39,947 nucleotides of DNA, taken from sequence record SRR2962707_2659. One strand, given 5' to 3'. How positions within the stretch are numbered: the stretch's first letter is position 1; every line of letters begins with the position of its first letter. Positions 3,906-37,039 of this stretch are shown piece by piece. The notes below the pieces were generated by a model. It saw only the letters and a list, made by a program, of their open reading frames with translations. It was not told the origin of the DNA and ran no database searches. A program made the position numbers and the translations under genes.

Positions 3906-3911
3906 CTACTT

Positions 3912-12581: not shown

Positions 12582-13024
12582 ATCAATTTTCTTAATAGCA
12601 TTGTCTGTTGATCTTTAATTGTTGAATCCACTGCGCGATTTCAGGCCACTGCAGCCCGCCGGCCGCCCTCTACCTCTAAGCCTGGTAGGTGACATCAGAC
12701 GCTAAACAGTACACAGATTTATCTGCGATCCCGAAGCATTCAGCAGCCGCGTTGGCCATCAGCAAGTCGGCGACCATTACCCCCATCAGCCCCCAACCGT
12801 GAGAAAGTACGGGAAAAGCGGACGGCTCCTAAGACTCCATGAGGAACGCGCTCGCGCCCAATCCACACAATCAATTCGTAAAAAATATTACATGTGTGCG
12901 CAATAAAGTCCAAGATTGAAAATACTTATTCTTTCCACTTCAAGTAAATCAGTCTTATTTCTCTGCGCCTCAGGTGCCGCCGCCATAAGCCCGCATCAAC
13001 CCGGAACTTATGGAGGTTTTTGCT

Positions 13025-14560
13025 ATGGGGAACTTACGACCACTGATTTTTCTGATCGCCAGTGTGTGGCGGCATCTGCCGTTTGTCGCCGCGCCGATTG
13101 GGTATCTGGCCTTTGCTGGGCCGGTGCATCATGGCCTTGTTATGGGGGCGCTGTTCGGCCTCTCAGGGCATCTGACGCGGCTGACCGTCACCGGTATCCG
13201 CTTGCGGTTCTTTCCGCACAAACCTAGCCACGGCTCGGCGCGCTTTGCGACGATGGACGAACTTGCCGCTACCGGGCTCTTTAAGCCCGGCGGTGTTCTG
13301 CTCGGCCGCGCCCATGGGCGCATGGTTCGTTACAGCGGCCACGGGCACCTGCTCACCTTCGCGCCGACGCGCAGCGGCAAGGGCGTGGGGTGTGTGATCC
13401 CGAACCTGCTCTCCTGGGAGAAGTCGGCCATTGTCACCGACATTAAAGGCGAGAACTTCGCCATCACCCATGCCCACCGGCGAACTCTGGGCCCGGTCTA
13501 TGCCATGGCCCCATTCGCAGAAGACAGCGAGAGCGCCCGCTACAACCCGTTCGACTTCATCCGCATCTGCACGCATTACGAACTGGATGACGCGCGGCTT
13601 ATCGCGGAAATGTTGGTCGCCCCAGAACAAGCGGAAGCCAACCACTGGGAGCGGGAAGCGCGAACGCTGATAACCGGCCTCGTGCTCTACATCCGGCGGC
13701 AATGTCTGGTCGGCAAACGCAACCCGGCATACCTGCGCGAACTGCTGATGGAAGATCAGGAAGGGTTCGAGCTGGTCATACAAAGGATGTCGAACAGCGA
13801 TATCGACACCGTCGCCCGTATAGCCCGGGGCTTTTCCCAGAAGGAAGCCAAGGAACGCTCGGCGGTTATCTCCACCGCACAGGCGGCAACGGCGGTCTTT
13901 GACAGTGAGCCACTGGCAAAGCTGACAGAGTGGTCCGACTTCGACCTGGAGGAACTCAAGGAGAAGACGGGCACGCTCTATATCATCGTGCCGCCTGAGC
14001 ATCTGGAAGCCTACCGGCCCTTCATGCGGCTGATGGTGGGCCTGAGCATGGCCGCAATGACGCGGCGCGGCACCAGCGAGGCTAATCAGGTTCTCTTCCT
14101 ACTGGATGAGCTACCCGCCCTTGGCTACATGCGCCCTATCGAAGAAGGCATCGGCTACATGGCTGGGTACGGCGCGAAGCTGTGGCTCTTCGTGCAGGAC
14201 TTGAATCAGTTGGAGAAGGTCTACCCGAAAGCCCGCTCGATGATCGCCAACTGCGCGGTACGCCAAGCCTTCAACGTGCAGGATTCCGGCACGGCACGTT
14301 TGCTGTCCGACATGCTGGGCGTAACCACGGTCAAGGTGAAATCACAAGGCCGCTCGTCACCGCTACCGATGAACCTGCTGCCGGTGGCATTTCACAGCGG
14401 CCTCTTTGAGACGGCGCGACCTCTGATGACGCCGGACGAAGTCAGCACCCTGTCTCGCGACCAGCAACTGCTGTTCGTGGAAGGCCTGCACGGCATGGTG
14501 ACGCGCAAGCTGCGCTACTTCGACTGGCAGGAATGGCAACTGCGGCGGCGCGCGCAATAG
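13025..14560 (+). CDS. Type IV coupling protein 1 (VirD4/TraG family), 511 aa
   Basis: GGAGG RBS; hydrophobic N-terminus; HGSARFA, APTRSGKG, DIKGE, YNPF, LLDELPALG, QDLNQL, RPLMTPDE. Confidence 0.93.
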   Translation: MGNLRPLIFLIASVWRHLPFVAAPIGYLAFAGPVHHGLVMGALFGLSGHLTRLTVTGIRLRFFPHKPSHGSARFATMDELAATGLFKPGGVLLGRAHGRMVRYSGHGHLLTFAPTRSGKGVGCVIPNLLSWEKSAIVTDIKGENFAITHAHRRTLGPVYAMAPFAEDSESARYNPFDFIRICTHYELDDARLIAEMLVAPEQAEANHWEREARTLITGLVLYIRRQCLVGKRNPAYLRELLMEDQEGFELVIQRMSNSDIDTVARIARGFSQKEAKERSAVISTAQAATAVFDSEPLAKLTEWSDFDLEELKEKTGTLYIIVPPEHLEAYRPFMRLMVGLSMAAMTRRGTSEANQVLFLLDELPALGYMRPIEEGIGYMAGYGAKLWLFVQDLNQLEKVYPKARSMIANCAVRQAFNVQDSGTARLLSDMLGVTTVKVKSQGRSSPLPMNLLPVAFHSGLFETARPLMTPDEVSTLSRDQQLLFVEGLHGMVTRKLRYFDWQEWQLRRRAQ

Positions 14561-16816: not shown

Positions 16817-18520
16817 TCAGAAGCGCGGCCCCGGCATCTCCCTCTCCATCTCTTTCACTTTCTCATTCTCCCGGCTGCGTTCCTCATACTCGTGGAGCGC
16901 CCGCACAAGTTGGCGTTTGTAGTCGTAGGCATAGTTGCTCGCGCGGATGGCCTTCTCCGTCACCCGTGACAGGGCTGCGGCGCGGCGCTCAAGCGCCCTT
17001 CCCAGCATCTTGTGCAAGTAGGCGTCGGTGCCGGTGCGCTGGTGGATCAGCTCAAAGTCTCGTTTGGCGATCTTCACCTGCCGGCGGCCGTCTTCGATCT
17101 TGTCGTTCCAGTGGCTAACGTCCTGCTGCGCCCTGCGCCAGCGGCTGCGCCGGTGTTTGAGGTAACGCAGAGACACTTCCGCCTTCTTGCGCGTTTCATC
17201 CTTGGCGATCCCGACATTCAGGCCGCGCAGACCTCCGGCGAGGCCGGGCTTCTCCTTGAGCATGCGGGCGGTTTCTTCAACGCCGAACTGCGCTTCCATC
17301 TTCATCCAGATACGCTCGGCCTTGGCCGGGTCTTTGAACGTGACCGTAAGCGACTCCCGGAAGCTCTCGCGCCAGCGTGTTTCAAACTTCGTCGCGCGGT
17401 CATGCCGACTGTGGGCGTAGGCCGCATCCCGCTCGGCGCGGAATAGCCGCCTCTCGCCATACCGGTAGTGCGCGTCCAGACCTTTCCAGTAGTGGACGGC
17501 CATTTGCGCGTGATCGAGTTCGGTCATGGCGTCTCTGGTCTTCTTGCGCGCGACCCGCTCTTCCGCCGCGCGAAGCCGGTCGGCGCGGCGGAGTTGCGCG
17601 GGCGTCATATTCTCGCTGCCGGGGATGGGGTGCTTGCGCTTCTCCGCCGCCACAAGTTCGTCAATCCGCGTCAACTCCCAGTCGTCAAACGTCTCGCCGA
17701 ACCGTTCCTCCAGCTCCGTAAGCCGCACACCCTTGCCCATTTGCGAAAGCTTGGCCGCTTCGTCCCCGCGCACCAGCACGAGGCCCCGACCCTTGCGCTG
17801 CAACTGGAGGCCATACGCCCCAACACGCGCGGACAAGTCGGCCCATGACGTGGCGTTGTAGAAGTGCGGGGCCACCCTCTCCCGCAGTGATTTCACATCT
17901 TCCCAGTTCATATCCGGGATGGGCGGGCGGTTGTTGCGCCGGGCCAGCCAATACTCGGCGTCCGTCACGGTGGCGCGAGTATCGCCAAAATCTTCCTGTA
18001 GCTCTTGTTCTGGGATGCGGGCTTTGTCCCGCCCGCGTTCTTTGGCGATGTTGAGGTCGCGCTCGCGGGCGATCTCGCGCACCAGCGCCGTGAGGCGCTT
18101 GCCGTCATTGTGACGGCTGTAGGCTTTGCCGGTCTGCGGATGAATCCGGTTCACTAGGAAGTGGATGTGCGGATGCTCGGTATCCCGATGGGCGTAGATC
18201 AGAGCTTGATAGTCGCTCAGGCCAAGGCGCTCGATGGCGTCAAAGGCGATCTCGCGCATGATGCCGGGGTCAACCTTCCTGGCCTTGGCGTCTTTCGGGT
18301 CGAAGGCCAGCACGAAATGGTAGGCCGGGTTGCGGCACCGCGTGGACTGGGCGGCGGTCGCCGCCATCACAGCGGCGGCGGCTTCGGGATTGTCAGTCTG
18401 AAGGTTGCGCGTCTCAACCCACTCGACGCGATCGGGGCTGAGCTTGGCGGTGTTGCCCGACAGATAAAGCGCCGATGCGCGAAAATTTGCAGGCTGCTTT
18501 TTGGGGATTTTGAAGCGCAT
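16817..18520 (-). CDS. MOBP (VirD2-like) relaxase with BID-like C-terminal region, 567 aa
   Basis: N-terminal Tyr (ALYL), YHFVLAF, HRDTEHPHIHFLVNRIHP; C-terminal KDP..PGLAGGLRG..G..K..RKKAE. Confidence 0.92.
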   Translation of the reverse strand: MRFKIPKKQPANFRASALYLSGNTAKLSPDRVEWVETRNLQTDNPEAAAAVMAATAAQSTRCRNPAYHFVLAFDPKDAKARKVDPGIMREIAFDAIERLGLSDYQALIYAHRDTEHPHIHFLVNRIHPQTGKAYSRHNDGKRLTALVREIARERDLNIAKERGRDKARIPEQELQEDFGDTRATVTDAEYWLARRNNRPPIPDMNWEDVKSLRERVAPHFYNATSWADLSARVGAYGLQLQRKGRGLVLVRGDEAAKLSQMGKGVRLTELEERFGETFDDWELTRIDELVAAEKRKHPIPGSENMTPAQLRRADRLRAAEERVARKKTRDAMTELDHAQMAVHYWKGLDAHYRYGERRLFRAERDAAYAHSRHDRATKFETRWRESFRESLTVTFKDPAKAERIWMKMEAQFGVEETARMLKEKPGLAGGLRGLNVGIAKDETRKKAEVSLRYLKHRRSRWRRAQQDVSHWNDKIEDGRRQVKIAKRDFELIHQRTGTDAYLHKMLGRALERRAAALSRVTEKAIRASNYAYDYKRQLVRALHEYEERSRENEKVKEMEREMPGPRF

Positions 18521-18523
18521 CCA

Positions 18524-19114
18524 TCACCTCCCCCCGCGTGACGGCGGCTCGTGAGACGGGCCCGGAGATTGCGCGCCCTCTTTCGGCGGCTTGCCTGCGT
18601 CCTTGTTGGCGGTTGTTGGTGCCACTGAGGCTTCATGCAGTGGCTCCAGCGCTGCGCGCATAGCTTCGAACGCTTCGTCGCGAAGCTCGCTCGGCACATC
18701 GTGGCCGCTGTTGGCCATATGCGCCAGCCGGTTGACCGTGTGCCCGGCCGTGTTGAGCGGCTCGATCTGGGCCTCGATCATCTCAGCGAGATCGTTGCGG
18801 CCCAGCAGTTGCTCCACCAACTGCCCGCCTGTGTACCGCGCCCAGCGGGCGTAGACCTCTTCGCCGGTTACGTCCGCCAGCTGCTGGAAGTTGGTCGCTG
18901 CCGATTGCAGCTCGTACAGCAGCTTCTGAAAGATGATGAGCTGCGCCGGGCGGGCGCGGGGGCGTTTACCCAGAACCGTCTCCCGCGCATAGCGCCCGAA
19001 AGGCATCCCAGCGGCGGCAGCATGGGTCTTGAACTGCGCCAGCTCCGCATCCGTGAGGCGGATATTTACAACGTGGCGGCGCCTGTCGGCCGGGCTCTTA
19101 CGCGGCCGTGCCAT
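18524..19114 (-). CDS. mobC: MobC-like ribbon-helix-helix relaxosome accessory protein, 196 aa
   Basis: VNIRLTDAE..AAAAG..YAR; between oriT and relaxase. Confidence 0.85.
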   Translation of the reverse strand: MARPRKSPADRRRHVVNIRLTDAELAQFKTHAAAAGMPFGRYARETVLGKRPRARPAQLIIFQKLLYELQSAATNFQQLADVTGEEVYARWARYTGGQLVEQLLGRNDLAEMIEAQIEPLNTAGHTVNRLAHMANSGHDVPSELRDEAFEAMRAALEPLHEASVAPTTANKDAGKPPKEGAQSPGPSHEPPSRGGR

Positions 19115-19611: not shown

Positions 19612-21153
19612 ATGCCCAGCGCCGCTGAAAAACTTGCCGATAGCCTAGAGGCCCTTCACGGGCTGCAAAAGGGTGGCAAGGTGGCGATCCGCTCGGCGGA
19701 GCTGTCACGCACCCACCGGGAACGCCTGCTCAAGGCAGGCTTCCTCAAGCCCGTCATGAAGGGCTGGTACATCCCGGCCCGGCCGGATGAGACCACCGGC
19801 GAGAGCACTGCCTGGTACGCCTCCTTCTGGGCGTTCTGCGCCACCTATCTGGCCGAGCGGTTCGGCGAGGCGTGGGTGCTGTCGCCAGAAGAGTCTCTGC
19901 TGCTGCACACCGGCAATCGCACCGTGCCGCGCCAGCTCCTTGTTCGTGCCCCGAAGGGCAAGAACAACATCGTCGCCCTGCCTCATGACACGTCCCTGCT
20001 CGATGTGAAGGCTGACCTGCCCCCAGCCGCCCTGATTGAAAAGAAGGACGGCCTCAACCTCTACGCCCTGCCCGCCGCGCTTGTCGCCAGCGGGCCCGGT
20101 TTCTACACCGCCTCCGCCAATGAGGCGCGCGCTGCCTTGGGCACCATCCGCAACGCCTCGGAAGTGCTCAGCCTTCTCCTGGAAGGCGGGCACACGAAGG
20201 CGGCGGAGCGCCTCGCCGGGGGCTTTCGCAATATCGGCAAGGCCCGTATTGCCGACGACATCGTCAAGACCATGCAGGCGGCCGGATACAACGTCCGGGA
20301 GAGCGACCCCTTTGCAGGCCCGTCGCCGATAGTGCTGCGCGACCATGAGCGTTCGCCCCACGTCGCCCGCTTGCGGCTGATGTGGCAGACCATGCGCGGT
20401 GAAATTGCGGAGCATTTCCCGCCGCCGCCCGGCAGGCCCAATGATATTGCGGCCTACCTCAAGCGCGTGGACGAAACCTACGTCACCGACGCCTACCACT
20501 CGCTGTCTATTGAAGGCTATCAGGTCACGTTGGAGCTGATAGAGCGGGTGCGCGCGGGAAATTGGAACCCCAATAACAACGAAGAAGATCAAAATCACCG
20601 CAACGCGCTTGCCGCGCGCGGCTACTGGCAGGCTTTCCAAGCCGTCAAGTTAGCCGTCGAGCGGGTGCTTCATGGCGACAATCCCGGAGAAGTCGTCGAA
20701 GCCCGGCATGGTGATTGGTACCGCGAACTTTTCGCGCCAAGCATCACCGCCGGGCTGATCAAGCCCGCTGATCTGGCGGGCTATCGCAATGCGCCGGTCT
20801 ATATCCGCAAATCCATGCACGTGCCGCCCGCTCGCGAGGCCGTGTTGGATCTGATGGAGACTTTTTTTGAGCTTCTCAGCGAAGAGCCCGCCCCCGCCGC
20901 GCGGGTGGTCCTGGGCCACTTCGCGTTTGTGTACATCCACCCCTACATGGACGGAAACGGCCGCATGGCCCGTTTCCTCATGAACACCATGCTAGCGGCG
21001 GGCGGTTATTCGTGGACGGTCATCCCCGTCACCCGCCGCGACGACTACATGGCCGCGCTCGAAGCGGCCAGCGTCGGGCAGGACATTCGTCCGTTTGCTC
21101 GGTTCATTGGAGAGCTTGTTTCAACAGCAGAGAAAAACTTGAAGAAGATATGA
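19612..21153 (+). CDS. Fic-domain protein with long N-terminal extension, 513 aa
   Basis: HPYMDGNGRMAR Fic motif; SLSIEG autoinhibitory-type motif upstream. Confidence 0.93.
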   Translation: MPSAAEKLADSLEALHGLQKGGKVAIRSAELSRTHRERLLKAGFLKPVMKGWYIPARPDETTGESTAWYASFWAFCATYLAERFGEAWVLSPEESLLLHTGNRTVPRQLLVRAPKGKNNIVALPHDTSLLDVKADLPPAALIEKKDGLNLYALPAALVASGPGFYTASANEARAALGTIRNASEVLSLLLEGGHTKAAERLAGGFRNIGKARIADDIVKTMQAAGYNVRESDPFAGPSPIVLRDHERSPHVARLRLMWQTMRGEIAEHFPPPPGRPNDIAAYLKRVDETYVTDAYHSLSIEGYQVTLELIERVRAGNWNPNNNEEDQNHRNALAARGYWQAFQAVKLAVERVLHGDNPGEVVEARHGDWYRELFAPSITAGLIKPADLAGYRNAPVYIRKSMHVPPAREAVLDLMETFFELLSEEPAPAARVVLGHFAFVYIHPYMDGNGRMARFLMNTMLAAGGYSWTVIPVTRRDDYMAALEAASVGQDIRPFARFIGELVSTAEKNLKKI

Positions 21154-22901: not shown

Positions 22902-23792
22902 CTACATGGGCCGCCATACATATGTTCTGATTTGCTTCTCTTCAGCTTCGAAGCCGAGATTCTTGTGGATCGATATGGAAGGTACGTTCTCTATGTCGAT
23001 GATAGACGCTGACACTCGAAAGCCACGCTCTCTCTGCGCTGAAACTTGGTCATGCAAAGTAGCCGAGCCTATGCCCAAGCAACGCATCGACGTGCTAACG
23101 CCAATATATGTGTTCCAAGCAACTGAATGCTCCGAGTCAAAGCTCTCGCCAACACACGCGATCATCTCTTCTTTATCGTAGTAACAAGAAAAATTTTCCG
23201 ACACGCAATCAAAAATACCCATCGACAACTCAAGCCGGTCCTTTCTATCAGCTGTTTCCTGTATCAGCCTCGATAGGCAATCCGGGGACACATATGACTC
23301 AGAGCGCTTATCGAACTTCTGAAGCAGAAAATCACTCTCTGTTTCCGGAATACTCTTCTCTTGCAGATTCAAGTTGTATTGCCTTCTTGTCGCTAAAAGC
23401 TCGAATCCTGCCTGGCAAAGGCTTTCGATCCAAAGAGAACGCTCAGAGAAGTCCGTACCCTTCATGCTGCATTCGATCAGCTTTCTGTGTTCTAACTGCA
23501 CAAGCCGCTTCACATAACTCAAAACACTCGCGTAAACAGAAATTTGCGAAGCGTCACTACAGTTTGAAGCAATGGTGGGCCACCATATTGTTATTGATTG
23601 ACTATCGAGCTCGATTGAAAAACGCGCAACGACCCCCCCTGCATCCTTGACAACCACTCGGCGAATGCTCGAATCTTGCAAAATGGATTCAAGCACTTCC
23701 GCCTTGGCTTGCTCAGGCCGATCAAAGCCTATCGCTAGCCAAGCCTGATAGTTTTGGGGCGTAATCTCGACGAAGCTGTATTCCAATAACAA
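22902..23792 (-). CDS. GNAT acetyltransferase (probably tandem GNAT), about 296 aa
   Basis: YIGVSTSMRCLGIGS (motif A), N.PS..IHKNLGF (motif B); second ..AGF motif mid-protein; TTG start. Confidence 0.85.
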   Translation of the reverse strand: MLLEYSFVEITPQNYQAWLAIGFDRPEQAKAEVLESILQDSSIRRVVVKDAGGVVARFSIELDSQSITIWWPTIASNCSDASQISVYASVLSYVKRLVQLEHRKLIECSMKGTDFSERSLWIESLCQAGFELLATRRQYNLNLQEKSIPETESDFLLQKFDKRSESYVSPDCLSRLIQETADRKDRLELSMGIFDCVSENFSCYYDKEEMIACVGESFDSEHSVAWNTYIGVSTSMRCLGIGSATLHDQVSAQRERGFRVSASIIDIENVPSISIHKNLGFEAEEKQIRTYVWRPM

Positions 23793-23801
23793 TCTCCAAA
23801 A

Positions 23802-24680
23802 ATGAAATCATACAAGTTAAATCCATCCGTCCGAATAGACGCAGATCAACTCCCCACACTGTCATTCAATTGCGGGGGCGCCACCTCTTACCTAAATTTG
23901 GACAGCACTAAACAAATTAACATTTTGTACGATATGGCGTCTACGGATTATTTTTCCGTCGATGAAAACGGTTATTGCCCGGAACTCAATAGAACTATCG
24001 AAAAAAGTGTCGTAGAAGATTTGCTCAGTAGCGGACTTCTCGCAGAAAAAGGTTCGGCGCATCCAATTAAATTCGATGAGAAAAGTGAAGTCGCCTGGCA
24101 ACTCTTCGAACAGAAGAAGCTTCTCAATTATGACTTAGCGCGCACGGCTGTCGATCTCCCTCAAATCGGAGAGCATGTTTTTGTTTATGACAATTTCTTT
24201 TTGCGCGAGGTGCGCCAGAAAATACTCTCGTGGGTGACGCAACTCCCATTTCGACGAATAGATGTGGACCGAGAAGACACAACAGAATACGCACATTATA
24301 TACATGTGCTAAGCCCAGCGTCGCTCTTGGTTCAATCACTGCCGTTCACGCGAGCAATCCATCAATTTCTCTGTGCTAATTTTGGCGTGGCAGAAGCACA
24401 TCTTGCACGGGCGCATGTATATGCAGGCAGCATGGCTGACGCCTACTTCGAACACACCGACGGCGAGTCTCTCACCTCAGTATATTACCCCGGAGATTGG
24501 ATGGAAGATTGGGGAGGAGAGCTACTATTGAAGGCCGGGAACGAACACTTTCATGCCTTCTCACCAACAAGAGGACGCCTACTTGTGTTCCCGGGCCATA
24601 TCCCCCATCGAATTGGGGCGATTAGCGTCAATGCAAAACGCCCACGTTTTAGCATTGTGCTTCGTTATGCGCTTCACTGA
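23802..24680 (+). CDS. 2OG-Fe(II) oxygenase (prolyl-hydroxylase-like) with N-terminal extension, 292 aa
   Basis: HTD, W..DWGGEL, GRLLVFPG.IPH, RFS. Confidence 0.88.
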   Translation: MKSYKLNPSVRIDADQLPTLSFNCGGATSYLNLDSTKQINILYDMASTDYFSVDENGYCPELNRTIEKSVVEDLLSSGLLAEKGSAHPIKFDEKSEVAWQLFEQKKLLNYDLARTAVDLPQIGEHVFVYDNFFLREVRQKILSWVTQLPFRRIDVDREDTTEYAHYIHVLSPASLLVQSLPFTRAIHQFLCANFGVAEAHLARAHVYAGSMADAYFEHTDGESLTSVYYPGDWMEDWGGELLLKAGNEHFHAFSPTRGRLLVFPGHIPHRIGAISVNAKRPRFSIVLRYALH

Positions 24681-25552
24681 AGTATTCTTTCAATCTCTTC
24701 AGTAACAACGTCCATCGCATCATCAGACAATCTCTTGTCTGCCAATATTCTATCTACAATGTGCCTTGCTTGCTCTCGTCGTGTGGTTACGGGTGACGCA
24801 GGAACAATGTCCGGCACGAGATCAAAGGCATCTAGAGGGAGCTCAAAGGGTATTTCGGAAGGAGAAATCAACTCCATCAGAGAGATGAAGTGATAGTAAG
24901 AAATTCCCTTCCAACCGAAAGCAAGCGAAAGCGATTCCTCCAGAGTCTCCCCTTCGTGCGGGAAAAATGGTGGAATATAGAGAACGTCTCCCGCCGACAA
25001 CTCACAGTCTATCAGCGGCTCTGCCTTCGGCTTCGTAAATGAATAAATATCATTTGGGCGGCTTTCAATAATTCGGCGTCTTTGCTCCGAAGGAACAAAA
25101 GCGGCATCCCAAACACGCCACCGTCGCTTGCCGGCGGCTTGCACAATAAAGGCATCCTCATGCCCAGCATGGTATCCAATGCCGGAACCCACCGTCGAGT
25201 ATGTCGCGACGATGTCGTCCACTCGCCATGAAAACGGCACCTGCAGCCCGTCTCTGAGTACCGCTAACTCCGGGCATACCCTCTCTAGCGCGTTCAGAAG
25301 AACAGTATATTTCCCTCCCGTCCGAACTAATCGGTCAAAGACCAGAACAACATCAACACCCTCAATGAGCCGCGCTGTAGGCATGTCAGTAATCTCGCTG
25401 CATCTGCCATGTTGCGCAAACACTCGCATGTAAGGCGACAGCGTCACCCACTCTCGATAGAGATTAAGGGGAAACAGAAAACTGGGCGCGCAATCAATGC
25501 CACCCCGAATTAAATGGGGCACCTTTCGCCAGTACCGAGCGTCATAGACCAC
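24674..25552 (-). CDS. JmjC/cupin_4 oxygenase, YcfD(RoxA)-like, with HxG instead of HxD, 292 aa
   Basis: YWRK.P.LIRG, WRVDD, GIGYHAGHEDAFIVQAAGKRRW, L.AGDVLYIPPFFPHEG. Confidence 0.88.
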   Translation of the reverse strand: MVYDARYWRKVPHLIRGGIDCAPSFLFPLNLYREWVTLSPYMRVFAQHGRCSEITDMPTARLIEGVDVVLVFDRLVRTGGKYTVLLNALERVCPELAVLRDGLQVPFSWRVDDIVATYSTVGSGIGYHAGHEDAFIVQAAGKRRWRVWDAAFVPSEQRRRIIESRPNDIYSFTKPKAEPLIDCELSAGDVLYIPPFFPHEGETLEESLSLAFGWKGISYYHFISLMELISPSEIPFELPLDAFDLVPDIVPASPVTTRREQARHIVDRILADKRLSDDAMDVVTEEIERILQ

Positions 25553-25635
25553 ACCACGCTCTCCCTCACGGATTCACTTTAAGCCCTAGTGCAATCAACA
25601 CTGAGCGTTTCGTAGGCTCATGACCTAGATACTTA

Positions 25636-25923
25636 CTAGGATGAACCAAGCTTCTTCAAAGCTGCAGCAAGTCGAGTGTGATCAGCACGAGCCTCCAACA
25701 ATTTGGCTACATCACGTGCAGTAATTTTCGGATCATCTCTCCAAGTCTTTGAGAGAGCATACATATCGAGCACATTGAACAGATCGGGATCAGCGTCCTC
25801 CAACCGACGCATATCGATTTTTCCAGACGTATCCAGCGCTCTATCAAGCCTGCCTTCTATTTCAGCCGATTTTGCATTGATTCTCGCTTCAACCTGAGCA
25901 GCATAGTCATCAGAGTTCGCCAT
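25636..25923 (-). CDS. Small helical protein of unknown function, 95 aa
   Basis: Strong GGGAGGA RBS before ATG 25923; co-oriented upstream of JmjC gene. Confidence 0.75.
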   Translation of the reverse strand: MANSDDYAAQVEARINAKSAEIEGRLDRALDTSGKIDMRRLEDADPDLFNVLDMYALSKTWRDDPKITARDVAKLLEARADHTRLAAALKKLGSS

Positions 25924-25986
25924 GATGTCCTCCCGATGCATAAAAGTCGCGCGCAATAGGATATTCTCAACACCGTTGATTTCAAG

Positions 25987-26592
25987 ATGAAACAAATGGA
26001 TTGGCTGAAATGTGTTGACGACTTTCTACCGAGAGAAGTCATTTCGGAAGCGTACGGAATATTCTCAAATGCAATGCTTCCTCCGGGTACCACATACATC
26101 CGACCAGAAAACCTCAACAGCCCTGCTAGCTATTCGAATTGCAAAAGCACAATCGCCTTATTCTTTTTAGAGTTCGCCGCTAGAGCATTGGAGGCCGCCC
26201 AATTAGATAGCTGGACCCAATTTGAAGTTTGGACAAATCGCTCCACTCATTGCTCTGACCATGTTGACTACCACTTAGACAACAACGAAGAACTTCGTCG
26301 TCAGACGCAAAAAATTGAAACGCCGAAGTGTGGTTTCATTCTCTACCTTGGCCCAGATAGTAGCGGAATAGGTGGCACCTACTTCAATCCGCCTATTGTC
26401 AGCCCCGAGGCTGACAAGAACCTCTTTCGTCATCCTCGAATGGAAGATGTGACAACAACGTCCGGCATCTACATACCATTCAATGTCGGCAGATTAGTCG
26501 TATTTGACGGCCGCGCCCCGCATTGCGTTGTCCCATTTTCTCATAGTCCAAAGGGGACAAGGGTCGCCTTACTTGGGAACGCTTGGGCATAG
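25987..26592 (+). CDS. 2OG-Fe(II) oxygenase, 201 aa
   Basis: VDDFLP, EVW.N, YHLD, ILYL..GGT.F, GRLVVFDG..PH.V, R.ALLGNAW. Confidence 0.85.
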   Translation: MKQMDWLKCVDDFLPREVISEAYGIFSNAMLPPGTTYIRPENLNSPASYSNCKSTIALFFLEFAARALEAAQLDSWTQFEVWTNRSTHCSDHVDYHLDNNEELRRQTQKIETPKCGFILYLGPDSSGIGGTYFNPPIVSPEADKNLFRHPRMEDVTTTSGIYIPFNVGRLVVFDGRAPHCVVPFSHSPKGTRVALLGNAWA

Positions 26593-26871: not shown

Positions 26872-28131
26872 TCAGAAATTAAACGGGGCCTGATTCAGCA
26901 ACGGCCTAGTGCGCACGAATACATTACAATGCCGAATGGCCCGCGTGACCCCATTGTAGAGCAAACGCGCCTTTTGCTCGTCACTCCCCCTAACTCCCGG
27001 TGGCCACAGCAACACAACATGATCGAATTGACGGTTCTTGGCCTGATGAATGGACATCACGGGAATGCCGTGGGTTTGCTGGTATCCATAGGCCCTGTGG
27101 TGTGCCGCCTTGCGCTCTACCAATTCGCTCAACTCAGCAACGCTCCAAGAAGCTCGACCTTGTGCTTGAACCGCTTTGACAATCGCATTTTGTACGCTCG
27201 AAACCCACGGTGGAGGGTCAACGATTGCCGCCAGTCTATCCAAAGCCACACTGGTATCTAATGCTCCCATCCCGTCGAACGCGGCAAGAACTGCCTGCTT
27301 CTCTTCATTGTTCCGATCCTCGTGGATGAGTTTCAGAGGAGCGATGATTCCGTAACCCTTCGACTGCATACCCTGAGCTGCGCGTGCAATGATCTCATCT
27401 GCCCAACTGCGCCCCGAAGGGCCATAGATTAGAGCCCTAGTTCCTGCTACGCGCGACAGAGACGACACCACGGCAAACGGCATGACATTCTTGAATTTGT
27501 GCTCAATCCTGAGACCGTCACCAGATTGCGGCGATTGAAGATTCCGAAGCGCAACCCCTGCTTCAAGAAGACCTTGCTTCCCCGTCCGCCGAACAACGTT
27601 CAGAGTATCCACCCTACCCGTCGCGAACCATTCCAAAAATGGTGCCGTATCAAGTCCCTCATCCAGACATTGAAATTCGTCAGCCGCTACGAAAAGTGCG
27701 ACGTACGGCGCAAGAGCCTTGAGAATTCGCAATCGCTCAGGTTTCAACTCCTGAGCTTCGTCGACGACAATCACCGGAAAGGTACGCGCTACCCATTCGG
27801 CAATGACGGGGACTTCGAGCAGTTGACCGCAAATATCACAGGTCTGGTCGAAGCCGTCCGCCTGAAGACCGTTTGCAGCCGCGAATGAGCACCATCTTTG
27901 AAGGACCGACTGCGCGAAGCTGTCGATCGTCAGGCAGACGGCCTTCCCCCTCATAGCAGCAATATCGCGGAAACGACCGTCGAGCCGCTTTCGTGACCCG
28001 TGCATAAAGGTGAGTGCCAGCACACGCTGGTGCGGTTGCAGCGGACGCTGCACCAGATACTGCCCGACCTCTTCAATAAGTCGGTGCGTCTTGCCGGTGC
28101 CCGCCGGGCCTTCAAATCCTCGGAACGGCAT
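26872..28131 (-). CDS. UvrD-like SF1 helicase (Gabija GajB-like), 419 aa
   Basis: GPAGTGKT, LTF, TIDSF, DEAQE, D.FQ, SIHQAKNRQFD, YNGVTRA; overlaps OLD gene by 20 nt. Confidence 0.88.
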   Translation of the reverse strand: MPFRGFEGPAGTGKTHRLIEEVGQYLVQRPLQPHQRVLALTFMHGSRKRLDGRFRDIAAMRGKAVCLTIDSFAQSVLQRWCSFAAANGLQADGFDQTCDICGQLLEVPVIAEWVARTFPVIVVDEAQELKPERLRILKALAPYVALFVAADEFQCLDEGLDTAPFLEWFATGRVDTLNVVRRTGKQGLLEAGVALRNLQSPQSGDGLRIEHKFKNVMPFAVVSSLSRVAGTRALIYGPSGRSWADEIIARAAQGMQSKGYGIIAPLKLIHEDRNNEEKQAVLAAFDGMGALDTSVALDRLAAIVDPPPWVSSVQNAIVKAVQAQGRASWSVAELSELVERKAAHHRAYGYQQTHGIPVMSIHQAKNRQFDHVVLLWPPGVRGSDEQKARLLYNGVTRAIRHCNVFVRTRPLLNQAPFNF

Positions 28132-29935
28132 CGTTGAAGGTCCAAGTTTTTGTTTTACCGCTTTGGCTCGTTACGCTGGCCGCCCATTCATCAGGCACAT
28201 TCCTATCCATGGCAATCGATGCAACCACATTCAGTAGGTGAGCAACACGAGCGCAGCATCGTGGCTTTGCCGAAATTGCATCAGCAATGAGCCCATGAAG
28301 CACTTCGTCGCTCTTATGAGCTCTCTCGGCAAGGAAAGCAGGAAAATCGTCCACATTCGCTGGCAATTCGTAAGGGGCCAGTTCGGCATCCCGAAGGATG
28401 CTGTCATCAGCTGCAAGTACCCAGCCGATGATATGTTCCATCGTCCATCCGTCTGGCCAGATCACGACGCGGGCTGGCGGCTCGGCTTTGGCGGCGAGTG
28501 CGGCCGCATAGCCTTTACCCTGCTGATCGCCATCGACGAGACAAGTAAGCATTGGGTGCACGCCGTGGAGTTCATCAAACACCTCGGCAATCCGGGCATC
28601 CTTGGTCGGTATCGTACCTATCTCGTGCGTAAAACTAACGAGGCTATCTTCTGTGGCCGAGATATCGGCCACACGCGCCAGAAGGCGTAGCCAATTGGCA
28701 TCCGTCTTGCCCTCAGGGATGACAACTGCCGGGTTCATAATAGCGGTGACAGTTGCATCTCTGTCAGACAGAAACAGTCCACGCTGCGGGCTGGTCGCGT
28801 TTGTGCCGAGCGGGGCTGCGAGAAGCCGCGAAGCGGTCAAGCACCCAGCATCATTTGCCAAAAGGACCAGCTGATGAGGGCCAGGTACGGCGGCCACAGT
28901 GGGCGAATGTGTTGTAACGATGGTTTGGGACGCGTGCTTCTGCATCAAGTGCAGCAGGCGCCGCTGCTGTGGGGGCGGGATATGCAGCTCCGGCTCCTCG
29001 ATACACATGAGGAAGTTTTCGCCACTTGCCGTGCGCAAAGCACCAAACCGCATCAGCAGTATCAGCGTCTGAAGCGAAATCAGGCCGCTGCCGTGCCTAC
29101 GAGAGGGAAGTGGCATCTGACCGCCTTCAGAGAAATGTGGAATGACCGCTTCGAGCACACCTTCGCTGTCTGTTGAAGTCAGGCGGAGCTTGAGTTCCGT
29201 CTGACGGCCAAAAAGGCTGACAATGTCCTTGTTCACCTCGTCAATGAGAGGCTTCATTTTTTCGTCTTCTTCAAGCGGTGCCTCGGGATTACGCAATCTA
29301 TCCCGTTCTTCGAGAACGGCTTCGGCCGGCTTTCCACCAACGTAGGTTACCGCACGGCGAAACAGTTCCGACCCAAAGGAAATCATCCTGTCCCAGGTCC
29401 GGCTTGCCGGTACGAGAAAGAAACCCAGCTCCTTGATTAGAGCTATGGGAATCTGAGTGATGTTTGCATCATCTGCAAACGGGTCGCCCTGCTCCACATC
29501 GTCGAGAAAGTAGCGGATGCTCTCAACCTCAAGACTCGCATGATCAAAGCGAGCGCAGAAGGCGATTTGACAAACAAGAAAGTCGTCTTCGGTTTGCTTC
29601 GCCGCCGAAAGGGTACCGTGGGTAGGGTTGATCCACTTGGGAACCGCACGACCTGCACGAAACCATTCCGGGTGACGGGCAGGATCATTGGGGGAAAACT
29701 CGGAAATGGTCGCAACAATTTTTATGCGGTCCGCCGCCTCAGGACATGATCCATAGAAATCATGTTCGGTCAGGGAGCGGACGAGACGATCACGTCCAAA
29801 CAGGAGTGCAAGGGACTCGATAATCGTGGTCTTGCCGGAATTATTCGGCCCGATCAGCACGGTGAAGTCACCGAAAGTGACTTTACCCGATTTTATGCCT
29901 CTGAACCCCTCAACCTCGATTGCGTGAATGCGCAT
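28112..29935 (-). CDS. OLD-family ABC-ATPase/TOPRIM nuclease (Gabija GajA-like), 607 aa
   Basis: FRGI, GPNNSGKTT, GSG, IEEPELH, TTHSP, TOPRIM EGKTD and DGD. Confidence 0.92.
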   Translation of the reverse strand: MRIHAIEVEGFRGIKSGKVTFGDFTVLIGPNNSGKTTIIESLALLFGRDRLVRSLTEHDFYGSCPEAADRIKIVATISEFSPNDPARHPEWFRAGRAVPKWINPTHGTLSAAKQTEDDFLVCQIAFCARFDHASLEVESIRYFLDDVEQGDPFADDANITQIPIALIKELGFFLVPASRTWDRMISFGSELFRRAVTYVGGKPAEAVLEERDRLRNPEAPLEEDEKMKPLIDEVNKDIVSLFGRQTELKLRLTSTDSEGVLEAVIPHFSEGGQMPLPSRRHGSGLISLQTLILLMRFGALRTASGENFLMCIEEPELHIPPPQQRRLLHLMQKHASQTIVTTHSPTVAAVPGPHQLVLLANDAGCLTASRLLAAPLGTNATSPQRGLFLSDRDATVTAIMNPAVVIPEGKTDANWLRLLARVADISATEDSLVSFTHEIGTIPTKDARIAEVFDELHGVHPMLTCLVDGDQQGKGYAAALAAKAEPPARVVIWPDGWTMEHIIGWVLAADDSILRDAELAPYELPANVDDFPAFLAERAHKSDEVLHGLIADAISAKPRCCARVAHLLNVVASIAMDRNVPDEWAASVTSQSGKTKTWTFNDAVPRI

Positions 29936-29944
29936 CCTGCCCCC

Positions 29945-31255
29945 TTACTGCATTGTCGTTGTTATCCTTGTCCGCATGGCGTCGCCAATCGACCCAGCAA
30001 TTTCGGCCGGAAAGTCCTTTGGCATGGCTTTGACAGCACGCTCCAAAGCTGCATCGGCGCTATCGGCCAAAGTAGCGAATACCTCTTCGACCTTTTCCTC
30101 TTCCACACCTGCCGCCTTGGCGTTTTGCAGAAAATGGCGCGGCATGATTTCGTCAATCGGATAGTGACGCTTGTCGCCAACAGCCATAGCAAGGCGAAAC
30201 TCCTTCCGCTGGAGTTGTTTTGCTGCGTAGTTCGGCTGCGTGGACATGATGTCGTAGAGCGGGGTCATCCGGTAGCGGCCACCCGGCGTGAGGAAGAGGC
30301 TGAAGTTCTTGGCGTGGCCGTCAGGCGCACCAATCAGCCAGAAAATGATCTGCGCCTTGAGAAAGGCGAGACGGTCTTCTTCGGCATAGTCACTACCGTT
30401 GAGCAGGTTGAGGCATTCCCGAATCCCGGGGCCACCGTCACTGTTGTACTTGATGGTTGGCGGCACGGAGAGTGCCTGGCAGAAATCCTCCTGCGGCACT
30501 CGTAGCAGGCGTCCATCGCTGGCCTTTAGGCGGTCAAAACGCTCAACCGCCAAAACGCGCACGTCGTCGAAATTGACAATCTGGCTTTGCGCCACGTCGA
30601 GGCCCAGCTCCCGGCAGAGGGTGAGGCAGAAATGCTCGTTCTCAACGCTCAGAGTCATATCGAGCCCGTTGGGCAACTTACCCAGCTCGGGCTTCAGAAT
30701 ATGTGTGGTGGGCGTCGCACCCTTGGGCAGGCACCAGCCATTATCCCAAAGCAACGCGGTTTTCTCCTGTGCCCCGGCAATAGAGATGCGCAGTTCCCGC
30801 TCACCATCCGGGCGAATGCCCAAGGGCACGGTGGCGAGATTTCTGATGATATCGGCAACGTCGGCATCGCTGAGGGGCGCGCACTCCGGCGGTCCCGGCG
30901 GGGTGATATCGCCCCCTTCAGGCACAAACTGCAATGCACCGACACAATCACGGCCGATCTTATTGAGAAGGCTGAAGGCGTCCGTCCCTTCTGCACCGAC
31001 CTTCTCGGCGACCTTGCGCCGGATCTGGTCGTTGTCTGGAAGGAGGTTGTCGAAGAAGGCTGAAACTTCCGCCCCGGAATAGCGCTCTTCTCGCAGCGGC
31101 AAGGAAAGTGAAACCGGAATGGCACGTCGCTCGTCTGCAAGCCATCCTGCGTCGTAGACAAACGAAACGGCACCATTGGCAGCGCGATCCAGCACGCCAA
31201 CGAGCCGCCCGTTGAGGGCGACCGAAAGACGAGCGCTCTTGCGCGCGCGGGCCAT
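29945..31255 (-). CDS. hipA: HipA kinase toxin, 436 aa
   Basis: SLSLPL, FFDNLLPD, SIAGAQEK, PTTHILKP, NEH, VERFDR, QEDFCQ, DGHAKNFS, PLYD. Confidence 0.97.
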   Translation of the reverse strand: MARARKSARLSVALNGRLVGVLDRAANGAVSFVYDAGWLADERRAIPVSLSLPLREERYSGAEVSAFFDNLLPDNDQIRRKVAEKVGAEGTDAFSLLNKIGRDCVGALQFVPEGGDITPPGPPECAPLSDADVADIIRNLATVPLGIRPDGERELRISIAGAQEKTALLWDNGWCLPKGATPTTHILKPELGKLPNGLDMTLSVENEHFCLTLCRELGLDVAQSQIVNFDDVRVLAVERFDRLKASDGRLLRVPQEDFCQALSVPPTIKYNSDGGPGIRECLNLLNGSDYAEEDRLAFLKAQIIFWLIGAPDGHAKNFSLFLTPGGRYRMTPLYDIMSTQPNYAAKQLQRKEFRLAMAVGDKRHYPIDEIMPRHFLQNAKAAGVEEEKVEEVFATLADSADAALERAVKAMPKDFPAEIAGSIGDAMRTRITTTMQ

Positions 31256-33482: not shown

Positions 33483-34403
33483 CTAAGCGGCGGCCTCTAT
33501 CTCGCGGGATTGCAGGTTGCTGAGGTAGTCAGCCGCCTTAGCGGCTTGGCTGGCGGCGGTGAAGATGGCCTTCTTGTCGGCCTTCATGACTTCCAGCCAG
33601 TGGCCCAGGTATGCGGCGTGGTCAGCGCGCGGCTCCAGTGAGATGCCAAGCTCGGCGCACAGGAATGCAGCGCCCAGCTCGGCCACAAGCTCTTCCATCG
33701 CATAGGCGTTGTCGCCGAACCGCTTGCCGAACTGCCGGTCACACCGGTTGGATGCTCCGGTCCAGTGGGTCAGCTCGTGCAGCAGCGTTGCGTAATAGCT
33801 CTCGGTGGGCGAACTAGTGTCAGTGCCAAGGAAGCGGTCCCGCTCCGGTACCTGAATGGCATCCGCCACACGGTCATAAAAGGCACGCTCGCCGCCATGA
33901 TTGATGATAGCGCCAGTCGCCCGGATGTAGGCATCGGCATGGGCGATAGCTTCAGCGGGATTGGCCGGTGCCGGTACTGCCGGCAGCGTGAAGCCGTCCA
34001 CCTGATCGGCGTTGAAGACATAGCTGGCCTTGGCAACGAAGCGCTTACGTCCGTTCTCGCCCTCTTCCTCGGCGTCCGTCGTGTCGTCGCCTTGAAGCTC
34101 CTTATAGAAGACTACCAGACTGGACTTCTCGCCCTTGCGAACCTGCGCCCCGACGGATTGCCACTGGCGATATGTGCCCCAGAGGCCGGATGAAAAGCCC
34201 GTCAGTTCAGCCGATGCCCAGAGGCTGATCACGTTCACGCCCCGGTAGTGCGCGCTGGTGGCAACATTCTGCGGCCGGTGGGAGACGAAGCTGCTGCGAT
34301 GCCAAGGCATCTGGAATGCCCCCTGCCCTGCTTCGATGGCGGCCACGATGCGGTCAGTAACCTGGCTGTATACGTCTGCCCGTTGGTTGCTCTTATGTGT
34401 CAT
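33483..34403 (-). CDS. ardC: ArdC antirestriction / ssDNA-binding protein (DUF1738 + zincin-like), 306 aa
   Basis: Y..VTD.I, MPW, YRGVN, WGTYRQW, VRKGEK, VFNADQ, HELTHWTG, YA.EELVAE; AGGAGG RBS before ATG 34403. Confidence 0.95.
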   Translation of the reverse strand: MTHKSNQRADVYSQVTDRIVAAIEAGQGAFQMPWHRSSFVSHRPQNVATSAHYRGVNVISLWASAELTGFSSGLWGTYRQWQSVGAQVRKGEKSSLVVFYKELQGDDTTDAEEEGENGRKRFVAKASYVFNADQVDGFTLPAVPAPANPAEAIAHADAYIRATGAIINHGGERAFYDRVADAIQVPERDRFLGTDTSSPTESYYATLLHELTHWTGASNRCDRQFGKRFGDNAYAMEELVAELGAAFLCAELGISLEPRADHAAYLGHWLEVMKADKKAIFTAASQAAKAADYLSNLQSREIEAAA

Positions 34404-34428
34404 GTGTCGATCCTCCTTTTGCGGTTGC

Positions 34429-34651
34429 GAGCCGCGCGCTTCGCGGCCTTGTGAGGCCAAAGCGCAGCGGAGGACCGGAGGCGGCATTCCTCAGGAACCG
34501 AAACACAGTGGAGGACGGCAAGGACGGCGCTTTTTGCAGCGCGAGGAATGGCGCACGCCGTGCGCCAGGGGAAAAAGCAATGTGCCGCGCCGTTGCCCAT
34601 ACGGGACCCGATGCGATGGTCCGAACAGATAGGGCCGTGAATGCGCGGCTC
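34429..34651. promoter_or_regulatory. Structured leader upstream of ardC (candidate ssDNA promoter / ssi)
   Basis: Imperfect outer inverted repeat 34429-34450 / 34631-34651; inner motifs shared with DUF736 leader. Confidence 0.55.
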
Positions 34652-34914
34652 TCGCTCTATCCGCTGGAGGACGACACGACATATGCGCCAACGGTGCAGC
34701 TACAGCTCGCACTGCTGATTGATCGAAAAGCCGGGAAGATCGGGGGATTCAATGCCTGTGCGGAGTATTGCTCCGCTTTTTCAGGCGCTGATTTTCTGCA
34801 CGCGCACGATCCGTGGGCTGATGAGCGGCGGATAAGTGAGTGACATGACTTGCGGACTCGGCCTAGGGTTTCAGAGCATCACAGTAATCATCGAGGGCAG
34901 CGCGGGAGGGGGCG

Positions 34915-36603
34915 ATGGTCTTTGGTCTGTTTGGCAAGAAGAAGGCGCAAACACGCCTTGACGAGAACTGGCGCGATCGGATCGACCCCGCACACAAGGA
35001 AGCGCTGGAAATTCTAGAAGCATCGGGAGAAGTCGGCCCACCGTGGGTGCCCAGCTATCGGGCGGCCCTGCGCTTCGGCAAAATGGACGAAGCCAACGAG
35101 ACACTGCGCGGACACATCGTTCCGAAGTTGTCGAAGGAGACCTATGAACGCCTGCTAAATGCTGGTGGCAGCAATTGCTGGGCAAGTGCTTTTGACCTGA
35201 TCAACAGCGGCTATGTGCAGCCCCCAGACGAAGGACCAATCGACCGGATGGTCATCGGCCGCATACCCCACCCCAGCAAGCCAAACGTCTTTGGCGAGAT
35301 CGCATTTAGTGGGGATGGGCATCTGCTAACCGTCGCACCCACCGGCGCAGGTAAAAGCCAGCGCTTCATCCTGCCGACGGCCTTGGACTACAACGGCCCG
35401 ATCCTCATCTTCGACCCCAAGGGCGAAGCCTACAAAGAGACCGCATGGCGGCGCTCGTGGCATGGGCCGGTGTTCAAGTTCGCGCCCTTTGACGACAACG
35501 ACGACAGCGACCACTTCAATCCGTTGGACTTTGTGGCCGACTGGGACGACGCGCGAGTGCTGGCTGACTTGCTTCTCAACGTCCCCGAGAAGCAAGACTT
35601 CTGGGACAGCTCGGCGCGCGACCTTGTGCGTGCGCTTATTATATATGTGGTGAAAGTCCGCCCCGGCGGACAAGCCAATATACGCGAGGTGCTGCGCGCC
35701 CTCTCCCCCAGCGTCGAAGAGTTCGAGGACATGCTCGATGCCATGCGGACGACGCAGGAAGAGCCCCTTGTGGAGATGGCAAATGCGCTTGAGCAAATGT
35801 CCGAGAAAATGCGCACCTCCATGTATCAGGTTGCGCGCACGCAGCTGGACGTGTGGCGCTCACAAGCCGTTGAGCGCGTGACGAGCGACACCACCGACGG
35901 ATGGTCGCCGGAAATCATCCCGTCCAGCGCCTATTTCAATGAGCAAATGGTCGATTATGGCTTCCCGCTTGGAGGTAAATTTGTCGAAGACGGCCTCATG
36001 CGGGGTGCCACACCGTCGGTCTATCTCATCATTCCACCGGACAAGATAGCCAGCTACCGGAGCCTTCTCCGGGTCATGCTGGGTATGCACTTGAATGGCG
36101 CAATCAAGGCGAATCAAGGTGAAGAGGACCCCAAGCCGCTTCGTCCTTACCTCTTCATCTTCGATGAGCTGCCTCAGCTCGGCTATATGGAGCTGATCGA
36201 GAAGGCCGTCGCCATCGCCCGCAGTGCCAATGTTCGACTCTGGTTCTTCGTACAAGACTTGGCGCAACTGCGGGAGACGTTCTCAAAGTGGGAGAGCCTT
36301 CTCGCAAACTGCAAGGCGCAGATATATTTCCGGCCCGGCGACCTGGGCACGGCGGAGTATCTCAGCCGCTTGCTCGGCCGCCGCAAGGATGTTCTGGGGT
36401 CGGACAGGGAACTTGCAACGCCTCAAGAACTCATGGGGCCGGATTTCGACGGCAAGGCCATCTTGCGGCTGGCGGGCCAAAAGCCCGTCAAGGCAACGCT
36501 GCCGGAAGCCTTCTATGAGGATGAGGACACACAGGACTATATCTCGACCCAGAAAATCGGAATCTACAGTGTTCCGCAACGCGAACGCGGGGAGGAAAAC
36601 TGA
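34915..36603 (+). CDS. Type IV coupling protein 2 (VirD4/TraG family) with no obvious TM anchor, 562 aa
   Basis: GHLLTVAPTGAGKS, DPKGE, FNPLD, FDELPQLG, QDLAQL, RELATPQE. Confidence 0.9.
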   Translation: MVFGLFGKKKAQTRLDENWRDRIDPAHKEALEILEASGEVGPPWVPSYRAALRFGKMDEANETLRGHIVPKLSKETYERLLNAGGSNCWASAFDLINSGYVQPPDEGPIDRMVIGRIPHPSKPNVFGEIAFSGDGHLLTVAPTGAGKSQRFILPTALDYNGPILIFDPKGEAYKETAWRRSWHGPVFKFAPFDDNDDSDHFNPLDFVADWDDARVLADLLLNVPEKQDFWDSSARDLVRALIIYVVKVRPGGQANIREVLRALSPSVEEFEDMLDAMRTTQEEPLVEMANALEQMSEKMRTSMYQVARTQLDVWRSQAVERVTSDTTDGWSPEIIPSSAYFNEQMVDYGFPLGGKFVEDGLMRGATPSVYLIIPPDKIASYRSLLRVMLGMHLNGAIKANQGEEDPKPLRPYLFIFDELPQLGYMELIEKAVAIARSANVRLWFFVQDLAQLRETFSKWESLLANCKAQIYFRPGDLGTAEYLSRLLGRRKDVLGSDRELATPQELMGPDFDGKAILRLAGQKPVKATLPEAFYEDEDTQDYISTQKIGIYSVPQRERGEEN

Positions 36604-36650
36604 GGTCCGCTCACGCTTTCCGCAGTTCCCCTCGCCGTGTCCGTCACGCA

Positions 36651-36842: not shown

Positions 36843-37039
36843 CGTTCCATCCTCCTATTATTACACGTCATAGTTGTAATATGGGGATTGCTATAACCAC
36901 TTTACACCCCAGTAGCGGCAGATTTCTGCCGTTCGTGTACGGATGAATGCTGTGAGTTATGAATGTCGCTGGGAGCTGCTGGCAGCCATAGCGCGCCATT
37001 GTAACTTTCCCGTATTTGAAAGACGCGAAAGTTACGATT

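Follow-up and report, generated by a model that had tools for sequence, protein, structure and literature searches.

Retention or loss of the iron-binding carboxylate

The locus described here raises the question of what becomes of a JmjC-type oxygenase once the carboxylate that holds its iron is gone: does it turn into a halogenase, or does it go on hydroxylating by other means? Textbooks give the 2-His-1-carboxylate triad as the hallmark of 2-oxoglutarate (2OG) oxygenases, and the natural exceptions to it are, to our knowledge, the halogenases and AspH. Sequence record SRR2962707_2659, of which we analyzed a stretch of 39,947 nucleotides (the window, hereafter meaning that whole stretch), encodes a YcfD-like JmjC_2 Fe(II)/2OG oxygenase of 292 amino acids (positions 24674-25552, minus strand, with a GTG start codon) in which glycine stands at the position of the iron-binding aspartate. 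An original prediction, drawn from the DNA without database searches, had read this protein as a JmjC-fold peptide or protein halogenase. We found that it belongs to a clade in which the glycine is accompanied by an equally fixed glutamate two residues further on, and the most likely reading, to which we give a probability of about 0.6, is that it hydroxylates the T-x-R-D loop of a small protein encoded next to it.

The JmjC double-stranded beta-helix fold is present in this protein. Pfam JmjC_2 (PF08007) matched the open reading frame (ORF) at an E-value of 5.4e-21 (74.9 bits, the cut-off being 22), and a phmmer search of Protein Data Bank (PDB) chains returned E. coli YcfD (4nub, 4ccl, and 4lit) as best match at 1.9e-20, with R. 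marinus YcfD (4csw) at 1.2e-19. An AlphaFold2 model built from 43 sequences had a mean predicted local distance difference test score (pLDDT) of 90, and Foldseek searches with it gave YcfD, NO66, MINA53, YxbC, and FIH (PDB 3d8c) as the best matches, the top PDB entries being 4csw, 4ccl, and 4lit at E-values of 1e-16 to 1e-17. The JmjC/YcfD-like assignment made from the sequence alone was therefore correct. No known halogenase lineage appeared among the 35 PDB sequence matches or the Foldseek matches listed for the protein, and Pfam found no match in it to PF20514, the C-terminal dimerization and winged-helix domain.

The register of the iron site rests on residues 112-145 of the ORF (DDIVATYSTVGSGIGYHAGHEDAFIVQAAGKRRW), which the original prediction had set against a YcfD/RoxA pattern, without gaps and with Gly130 at the aspartate; phmmer reproduced the same gapless alignment of the motif to YcfD (query gsgigyhaghedafivq, YcfD gggvgphldqydvfiiq). 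In this register His128 (codon CAT at 25169-25171, atg on the plus strand) is the proximal iron ligand, Gly130 (codon GGG at 25163-25165, ccc on the plus strand) takes the place of the aspartate ligand, Arg143 (25124-25126) is the arginine that binds the 2OG C5-carboxylate, and His199 (24956-24958, within PPFFPHEG) is the distal iron ligand. For R. marinus YcfD, PMC5862935 names H133, D135, and H196 as the triad and R148 as the 2OG-binding residue. With Gly130 aligned to the aspartate, the canonical H-x-D/E...H triad is absent and a two-histidine pattern is left, H-A-G at residues 128-130, with glycine replacing the carboxylate. Both histidines and the basic 2OG-binding residue are kept, as had been proposed.

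A bacterial clade with H-x-G-x-E...H

A word-index search returned 35 homologues, mostly of about 300 amino acids (range 161-319) and with 36-53% identity, and the next matches were YcfD-like proteins of 371-413 amino acids, most of them carrying PF20514, a domain that precomputed Pfam lists place on none of P0002-P0036. When 1.84 billion representatives were searched with a profile, 3435 matched at E <= 1e-3 and 67 at E <= 1e-30. Motifs were counted in an alignment of 203 fetched relatives, among which 80 read H-x-G, one N-x-G (P0102), and 118 H-x-D, while four were gapped there. G-x-E-D was read in 80 of the 81 glycine-bearing relatives, the remaining one (P0116) being a 175-amino-acid fragment that is gapped four residues after the proximal histidine (His+4). 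In none of the 118 H-x-D relatives was glutamate found at His+4, the residues there being Y, I, M, K, F, T, P, D, or S. Among clade members, residues of the site were nearly without exception the same: histidine at position 128 in 79 of 80, glycine at 130 in 80 of 80, glutamate at 132 (codon GAG at 25157-25159) in 80 of 80, arginine at 143 in 79 of 79, and histidine at 199 in 76 of 76.

Phylogenetic reconstruction supported a single origin of the changed motif. In a FastTree reconstruction of 122 rows (all 72 H-x-G proteins of at least 240 amino acids, all 27 short H-x-D proteins, and 23 of the 89 long ones), the 72 full-length H-x-G proteins were set apart from all other rows by a single branch (SH-like support 91), and the glycine and the glutamate required one change each. 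The same split was recovered (SH-aLRT 96) in a quick IQ-TREE reconstruction with alignment columns 127-134 masked, for which 79 rows were taken: 37 H-x-G proteins out of the 72, every one of the 27 short H-x-D proteins, and 15 out of the 89 long ones. All four glycine codons (GGG, GGA, GGT, and GGC) and both glutamate codons (GAG and GAA) are in use in the window and 14 loci, which argues for selection on the residues themselves. A sequencing error or a Glu-to-Gly point mutation, which had been raised as a caveat because GGG is one change from GAG, was rejected as the origin of Gly130, since the glycine is clade-wide and written with four codons.

Arg43, Asn87, Gly130, Glu132, and Gly216 do not vary within the clade and are seldom found elsewhere, and Ser119 and Gln138 are kept clade-wide together with His128, His199, and Arg143, so that the 2OG site appears active rather than decayed. 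By record titles and source names, members come from at least five phyla and include Thermoleophilaceae, Pyrinomonadaceae, Chitinophagaceae, Polyangiaceae, Pseudomonas aeruginosa, and Agrobacterium (the last flagged as an unverified organism). This is a distinct and old JmjC clade of proteins of about 300 amino acids, without the winged-helix tail, in which H-x-D...H became H-x-G-x-E...H. The sources of six members (P0002, P0004, P0007-P0009, and P0019) give them the name 'ribosomal protein L16 Arg81 hydroxylase'; as the C-terminal domain is missing, the pocket changed, and the gene context different, this naming is probably an over-annotation.

Glu132 and the likely chemistry

The step from H-x-G to halogenase is where the original prediction lost support, because the glycine does not come alone: Glu132 is shared by 80 of the 81 glycine-bearing relatives and by none of the aspartate-bearing ones. 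The phmmer register places it at Tyr137 of the R. marinus enzyme (His+4), and Asp113 at Asp118 of that enzyme. In the complex of R. marinus YcfD with uL16, as described in PMC5862942, Tyr137 and Met120 form the pocket for the target arginine, which is hydrogen-bonded by Asp118 and Ser208. Across the clade the counterpart of Asp118 is kept in 74 of 79 sequences, and that of Tyr137 has become glutamate in 80 of 80. Given the equivalence to Tyr137, Glu132 would face the cavity that holds the oxidized residue, near the metal.

Two precedents suggest what an acid might do there. The cupin HppE, the epoxidase of fosfomycin biosynthesis, has the triad His138/Glu142/His180, that is H-x3-E...H (PMC7916636). 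In AspH, according to PMC13168262 and PMC6817910, the iron sits on two histidines and a water at the carboxylate site is stabilized by Asp721, and the enzyme does not halogenate even when halide (chloride) or pseudohalide is supplied. The D201G variant of FIH, itself a JmjC enzyme, is called 'catalytically viable' as cited in PMC6817910. Since the two-histidine sites of AspH and FIH D201G hydroxylate, H-x-G by itself does not predict halogenation. An acid that does not vary, placed next to the vacated site, would weigh against an anion being bound there.

Two neighboring residues had been put forward as substitute ligands, and they fared differently. Glu132 stays in contention, being fixed on the glycine branch and placed at the Tyr137 position. 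His131 was rejected, as its position (His+3) varies within the clade, where N, A, R, S, P, T, Y, Q, or D is found.

The adjoining 95-amino-acid protein

The likely substrate is an all-helical protein of 95 amino acids encoded beside the JmjC gene (25636-25923, minus strand, with a possible alternative TTG start at 25995). Nine homologues of 91-100 amino acids were found in the database. The AlphaFold2 model of this partner consists of helices only (pLDDT 79.5), and the protein had no Pfam match below an E-value of 0.04, no NCBIfam match, no similar fold in the PDB at E <= 0.001, and no match in the ESM Atlas. In the alignment the conserved part is the folded C-terminal half, and there is no variable core. 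That half contains the loop K59-T-W-R-D-D-P65 (25729-25749, minus strand), of which T60, R62, and D63 do not vary in any of the 13 aligned sequences or of the ten genomic contexts, and K59 and P65 are mostly kept.

Gene linkage ties the two proteins together. In a tblastn search of 31 fetched loci, with the cassette proteins of the window and of two loci as queries, 13 loci (L001-L004 and L012-L020) carried a full JmjC gene of the clade, and L026 carried no more than a 28-residue piece of one, at a contig end. The partner adjoins the JmjC gene in the window, as a homologue does in nine of the 13 loci, and the contigs of the remaining four (L004, L013, L018, and L020) end within the upstream radical S-adenosylmethionine (rSAM) gene. 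The expectation that H-x-G would be conserved in a homologue clade with the same neighbors was thus borne out, with glycine in 81 of the 203 relatives. The further proposal of a protein or peptide substrate gains credibility from this linkage and from P0092 (394 amino acids), in which an N-terminal PqqD domain, a recognition element (RRE) of ribosomally made, post-translationally modified peptide (RiPP) pathways, is fused to an H-x-G JmjC domain. A predicted complex of the JmjC protein, iron, and the 95-amino-acid protein scored 0.09 against a mark of 0.34, with the supplied alignments left unused, and is evidence neither way.

A probable hydroxylase of the T-x-R-D loop, and the alternatives

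The favored reading builds on the fold, the alignment, the clade-wide conservation, and the gene linkage, all of which were observed. From sequence, the gene appears to encode a catalytically competent YcfD-like Fe(II)/2OG oxygenase whose substrate is most likely the adjacent helical protein. The enzyme would oxidize a residue of the invariant T-x-R-D loop, and Arg62 at C-3 is our first guess for the target, because the arginine-binding aspartate of YcfD is kept. By analogy with HppE, Glu132 might bind the iron directly and complete an H-x3-E...H triad; alternatively, by analogy with Asp721 of AspH, it might hold in place a water that serves as ligand where the aspartate is missing. In both cases we would expect the enzyme to hydroxylate rather than halogenate. 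What Glu132 does, which residue is modified, and the chemistry are the parts of this reading that we infer. The other enzymes of the cassette, here two oxygenases that resemble prolyl 4-hydroxylase (P4H) and a GNAT acetyltransferase, elsewhere B12-binding rSAM enzymes with PqqD, would add further modifications.

Several points weigh against this reading. Since the changes to glycine and to glutamate fall on one branch, finding them together counts as a single event and not as repeated covariation. P0102 (305 amino acids) reads N-L-G-D-E-D, with asparagine for the proximal histidine while both glycine and glutamate are kept. Glu132 could merely bind a basic side chain of the substrate, which would leave the two-histidine site open to halide. 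The choice of target residue is a guess. Lastly, a leader/core split with protease and exporter was not found in the cassette, and within the window no protease, transporter, or exporter adjoins it; with these missing, 'RiPP' may be the wrong frame for the system.

The most far-reaching of the alternatives is that the iron has two protein-derived ligands only, the enzyme either chlorinating the T-x-R-D loop or recruiting Asp63 of its substrate as the third ligand. We regard this as unlikely, though deserving of some weight, and each of its two forms, taken in full, has its own case. As a true JmjC-fold protein halogenase, which we consider doubtful, the enzyme would use the space freed by the glycine for chloride, a ferryl-chloride would chlorinate the loop, and Glu132 would do no more than bind an arginine or lysine side chain of the substrate and be neutralized by it. 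The H-x-G...H pattern with both histidines and the 2OG arginine intact is what such an enzyme would have, the glycine is held in 80 of 80 members across a deep divergence, and in YcfD the His+4 position belongs to the substrate pocket and is not a ligand (PMC5862942); Arg43 and Asn87, invariant in the clade, could shape an anion pocket. We nevertheless know of no Fe(II)/2OG halogenase described with an invariant carboxylate two residues past its alanine or glycine, and a carboxylate so near the vacated site should disfavor an anion there. The hydroxylating two-histidine sites of AspH and FIH D201G count against it as well, as does the lack of halogenases among the listed sequence and fold matches, and the cassette showed no further gene with a link to halogenation.

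Equally doubtful is the second form, in which Asp63 of the partner, or a water shared by Glu132 and the substrate, would complete the triad and hydroxylation would follow, O2 being activated only once the right protein is bound. Consistent with it are the invariant adjacent R-D pair of the partner, the strictness of the glycine, never replaced by alanine or serine, which suggests a need for space, and the statement in PMC6817910 that the substrate side chain of AspH, a two-histidine enzyme, probably contributes to catalysis. It is, however, speculative, and Glu132 offers the simpler explanation of the site.

That the protein is a non-catalytic scaffold or binding protein with a decayed iron site is very improbable: the canonical carboxylate is lost and P0102 has asparagine for His128, but His128, His199, Arg143, and the rest of the 2OG motif are kept, in the counts given above, at overall identities of 30-50%, which points to an active site under selection. 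Least probable of all is an ordinary uL16 Arg81 hydroxylase with H-x-G as a tolerated variant, as the source names of several members and YcfD being the closest solved relative would suggest, given that the clade lacks PF20514, forms a separate branch, has replaced Tyr137, and sits on mobile elements beside a dedicated small protein, whereas the canonical YcfD loci (L022 and L023) are surrounded by ordinary genes and have none of the cassette modules.

The cassette and its mobile setting

Besides the JmjC gene and its partner, the cassette in the window comprises three genes. A 292-amino-acid P4H-like 2OG-Fe(II) oxygenase, in which the H-T-D...H motif is the usual one (23802-24680, plus strand; Pfam 2OG-FeII_Oxy_3, 1.5e-6), resembles the NCBIfam FlmC family 2OG-Fe(II) oxygenase (1.8e-15, below the cut-off), and its stop overlaps the JmjC stop by seven bases, the two genes being convergent. 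A second, smaller 2OG-Fe(II) oxygenase of 201 amino acids with an ordinary H-x-D (25987-26592, plus strand) matched 2OG-FeII_Oxy_3 at 0.0032, below the cut-off, and a 296-amino-acid GNAT acetyltransferase (22902-23792, minus strand) matched Acetyltransf_1 at 2.6e-4. PADLOC had no match for four of the five cassette proteins and one weak match (1.9e-05), of the 292-amino-acid oxygenase, to a CRISPR-associated 2OG model.

Composition varied among the 14 contexts formed by the window and the 13 clade loci. A P4H-like oxygenase of 289-292 amino acids was present in eight and an oxygenase of 201-228 amino acids in six, one or two B12-binding rSAM enzymes in seven, GNAT in seven, and a PqqD-like gene in four (L001, L002, L017, and L018), the window's cassette having none. 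The rSAM proteins matched models of B12-rSAM enzymes and RiPP C-methyltransferases, and a 91-amino-acid protein matched PqqD. Every module occurs in L017, which also encodes a fusion of B12-rSAM and PqqD (L017:3551-5494).

The window is a mobile element. The backbone of an integrative and conjugative or integrative and mobilizable element (ICE/IME) is represented by two integrases, two coupling proteins of type IV secretion systems, a relaxase, NikA, ArdC, and DUF736 (159-1349, 13010-14560, 16817-19114, and 33483-38209), and may comprise two nested or tandem elements. The cassette adjoins a Gabija pair (26872-29935, minus strand) made up of a GajA-like OLD ATPase of 607 amino acids (PADLOC, 3.4e-42) and a GajB-like short UvrD helicase of 419 amino acids. 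Further away is a DISARM-like block (1764-12581, minus strand) of a 713-amino-acid DrmB-like protein, a 1438-amino-acid DEAD helicase, an 885-amino-acid protein without a family, and an Eco57I/N6 DNA methylase. Other cargo includes a Fic-domain protein of 513 amino acids (19612-21153, plus strand) and a HipA-family kinase of 436 amino acids (29945-31255, minus strand). GC content is 46-50% in the cassette (23000-26000) versus 51-64% in the rest of the window, suggesting an origin separate from that of the ICE backbone. Elsewhere the cassette adjoins TniQ (L015), a serine recombinase and a DNA methylase (L012), or DUF2924 (L017).

A second lineage without the carboxylate

A shared distal-histidine peptide pattern led us to a 337-amino-acid Cupin_8/JMJD5-like protein (L011:2214-3227, plus strand), which aligns to JMJD5 without gaps at the motif and reads H-C-A where JMJD5 has H-Q-D. 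Its 57 homologues at E <= 1e-10 comprise 32 with H-x-A, 19 with H-x-S, five with H-x-D, and one with H-x-E, and in this Cupin_8 clade (P0213-P0264) the distal histidine is kept and no acid stands at His+4. The gene is followed by those for an MMPL transporter, an AMP-binding enzyme (acyl-AMP ligase), a ketoacyl synthase III (KAS-III), and an epimerase-metallo-beta-lactamase protein. Judged by its motif, the H-x-A/S clade fits a halogenase-type site better than the window enzyme does, and it is the better candidate for a JmjC-fold halogenase.

Significance and comparison with known systems

Among the papers listed by keyword searches of the literature, supplementary files aside, we came across neither a natural H-x-G JmjC clade nor a JmjC halogenase. 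What emerges is a whole bacterial JmjC clade with H-x-G-x-E...H, counting 81 of the 203 fetched relatives and 67 library representatives at E <= 1e-30, together with a modular cassette for protein modification, so far undescribed, that is carried by ICEs, Tn7-like elements, and recombinase islands next to defense systems. Because the candidate substrate is obvious, small, and soluble, what follows when the carboxylate of the JmjC fold is moved or removed is open to direct test. If the enzyme does work with two protein-derived iron ligands only, the cassette would be a mobile-element-borne maker of a chemically unusual modified protein; if chlorination were to prove true, the enzyme would be the first JmjC-fold and the first protein-directed Fe/2OG halogenase.

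The best match in sequence and fold is YcfD/RoxA, the uL16 arginyl C-3 hydroxylase of the ROX family to which NO66 and MINA53 also belong. The window enzyme shares with it the JmjC_2 core, both histidines, the 2OG arginine, the WRxDD motif with the arginine-binding aspartate, and the register of the iron motif. It differs in that glycine replaces the aspartate ligand and glutamate the pocket Tyr137, in having no PF20514 and a length of about 300 rather than about 375-390 amino acids, and in residing in a mobile-element cassette with a dedicated small protein rather than at a housekeeping locus.

AspH, the human aspartate/asparagine beta-hydroxylase, is a possible functional analogue, with two histidines and a second-sphere acid (Asp721 there, perhaps Glu132 here; PMC13168262, PMC6817910), although it is no JmjC member, showed no sequence homology in our searches, and acts on epidermal growth factor (EGF) domains in the eukaryotic endoplasmic reticulum. 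FIH D201G is a JmjC enzyme with H-x-G and a viable hydroxylase (cited in PMC6817910), yet is a laboratory mutant without a compensating glutamate. The H-x3-E...H spacing of HppE equals that of His128/Glu132/His199, a comparison of spacing and not of structure (PMC7916636), and HppE is 2OG-independent and no JmjC protein.

Turning to the halogenases, BesD has the two-histidine motif H-x-A/G...H, and the known substrates of Fe(II)/2OG halogenases are carrier-bound or free small molecules. SyrB2, CytC3, WelO5, and AmbO5 share that motif (PMC6817910). None of these five is a JmjC-fold relative of the window enzyme, and none was among its matches listed.

RiPP pathways with a JmjC hydroxylase have been described before: BipG, BpmG, and PbsQ hydroxylate a ribosomal precursor peptide and are found beside B12-rSAM enzymes (PMC12707348, PMC12257519), as JmjC genes of the present clade are in some of its loci. 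Compared by description only, these biphenomycin-type systems differ from the cassette in their short precursors and in clusters with a multinuclear non-heme iron-dependent oxidase (MNIO), an arginase, and a TldD protease.

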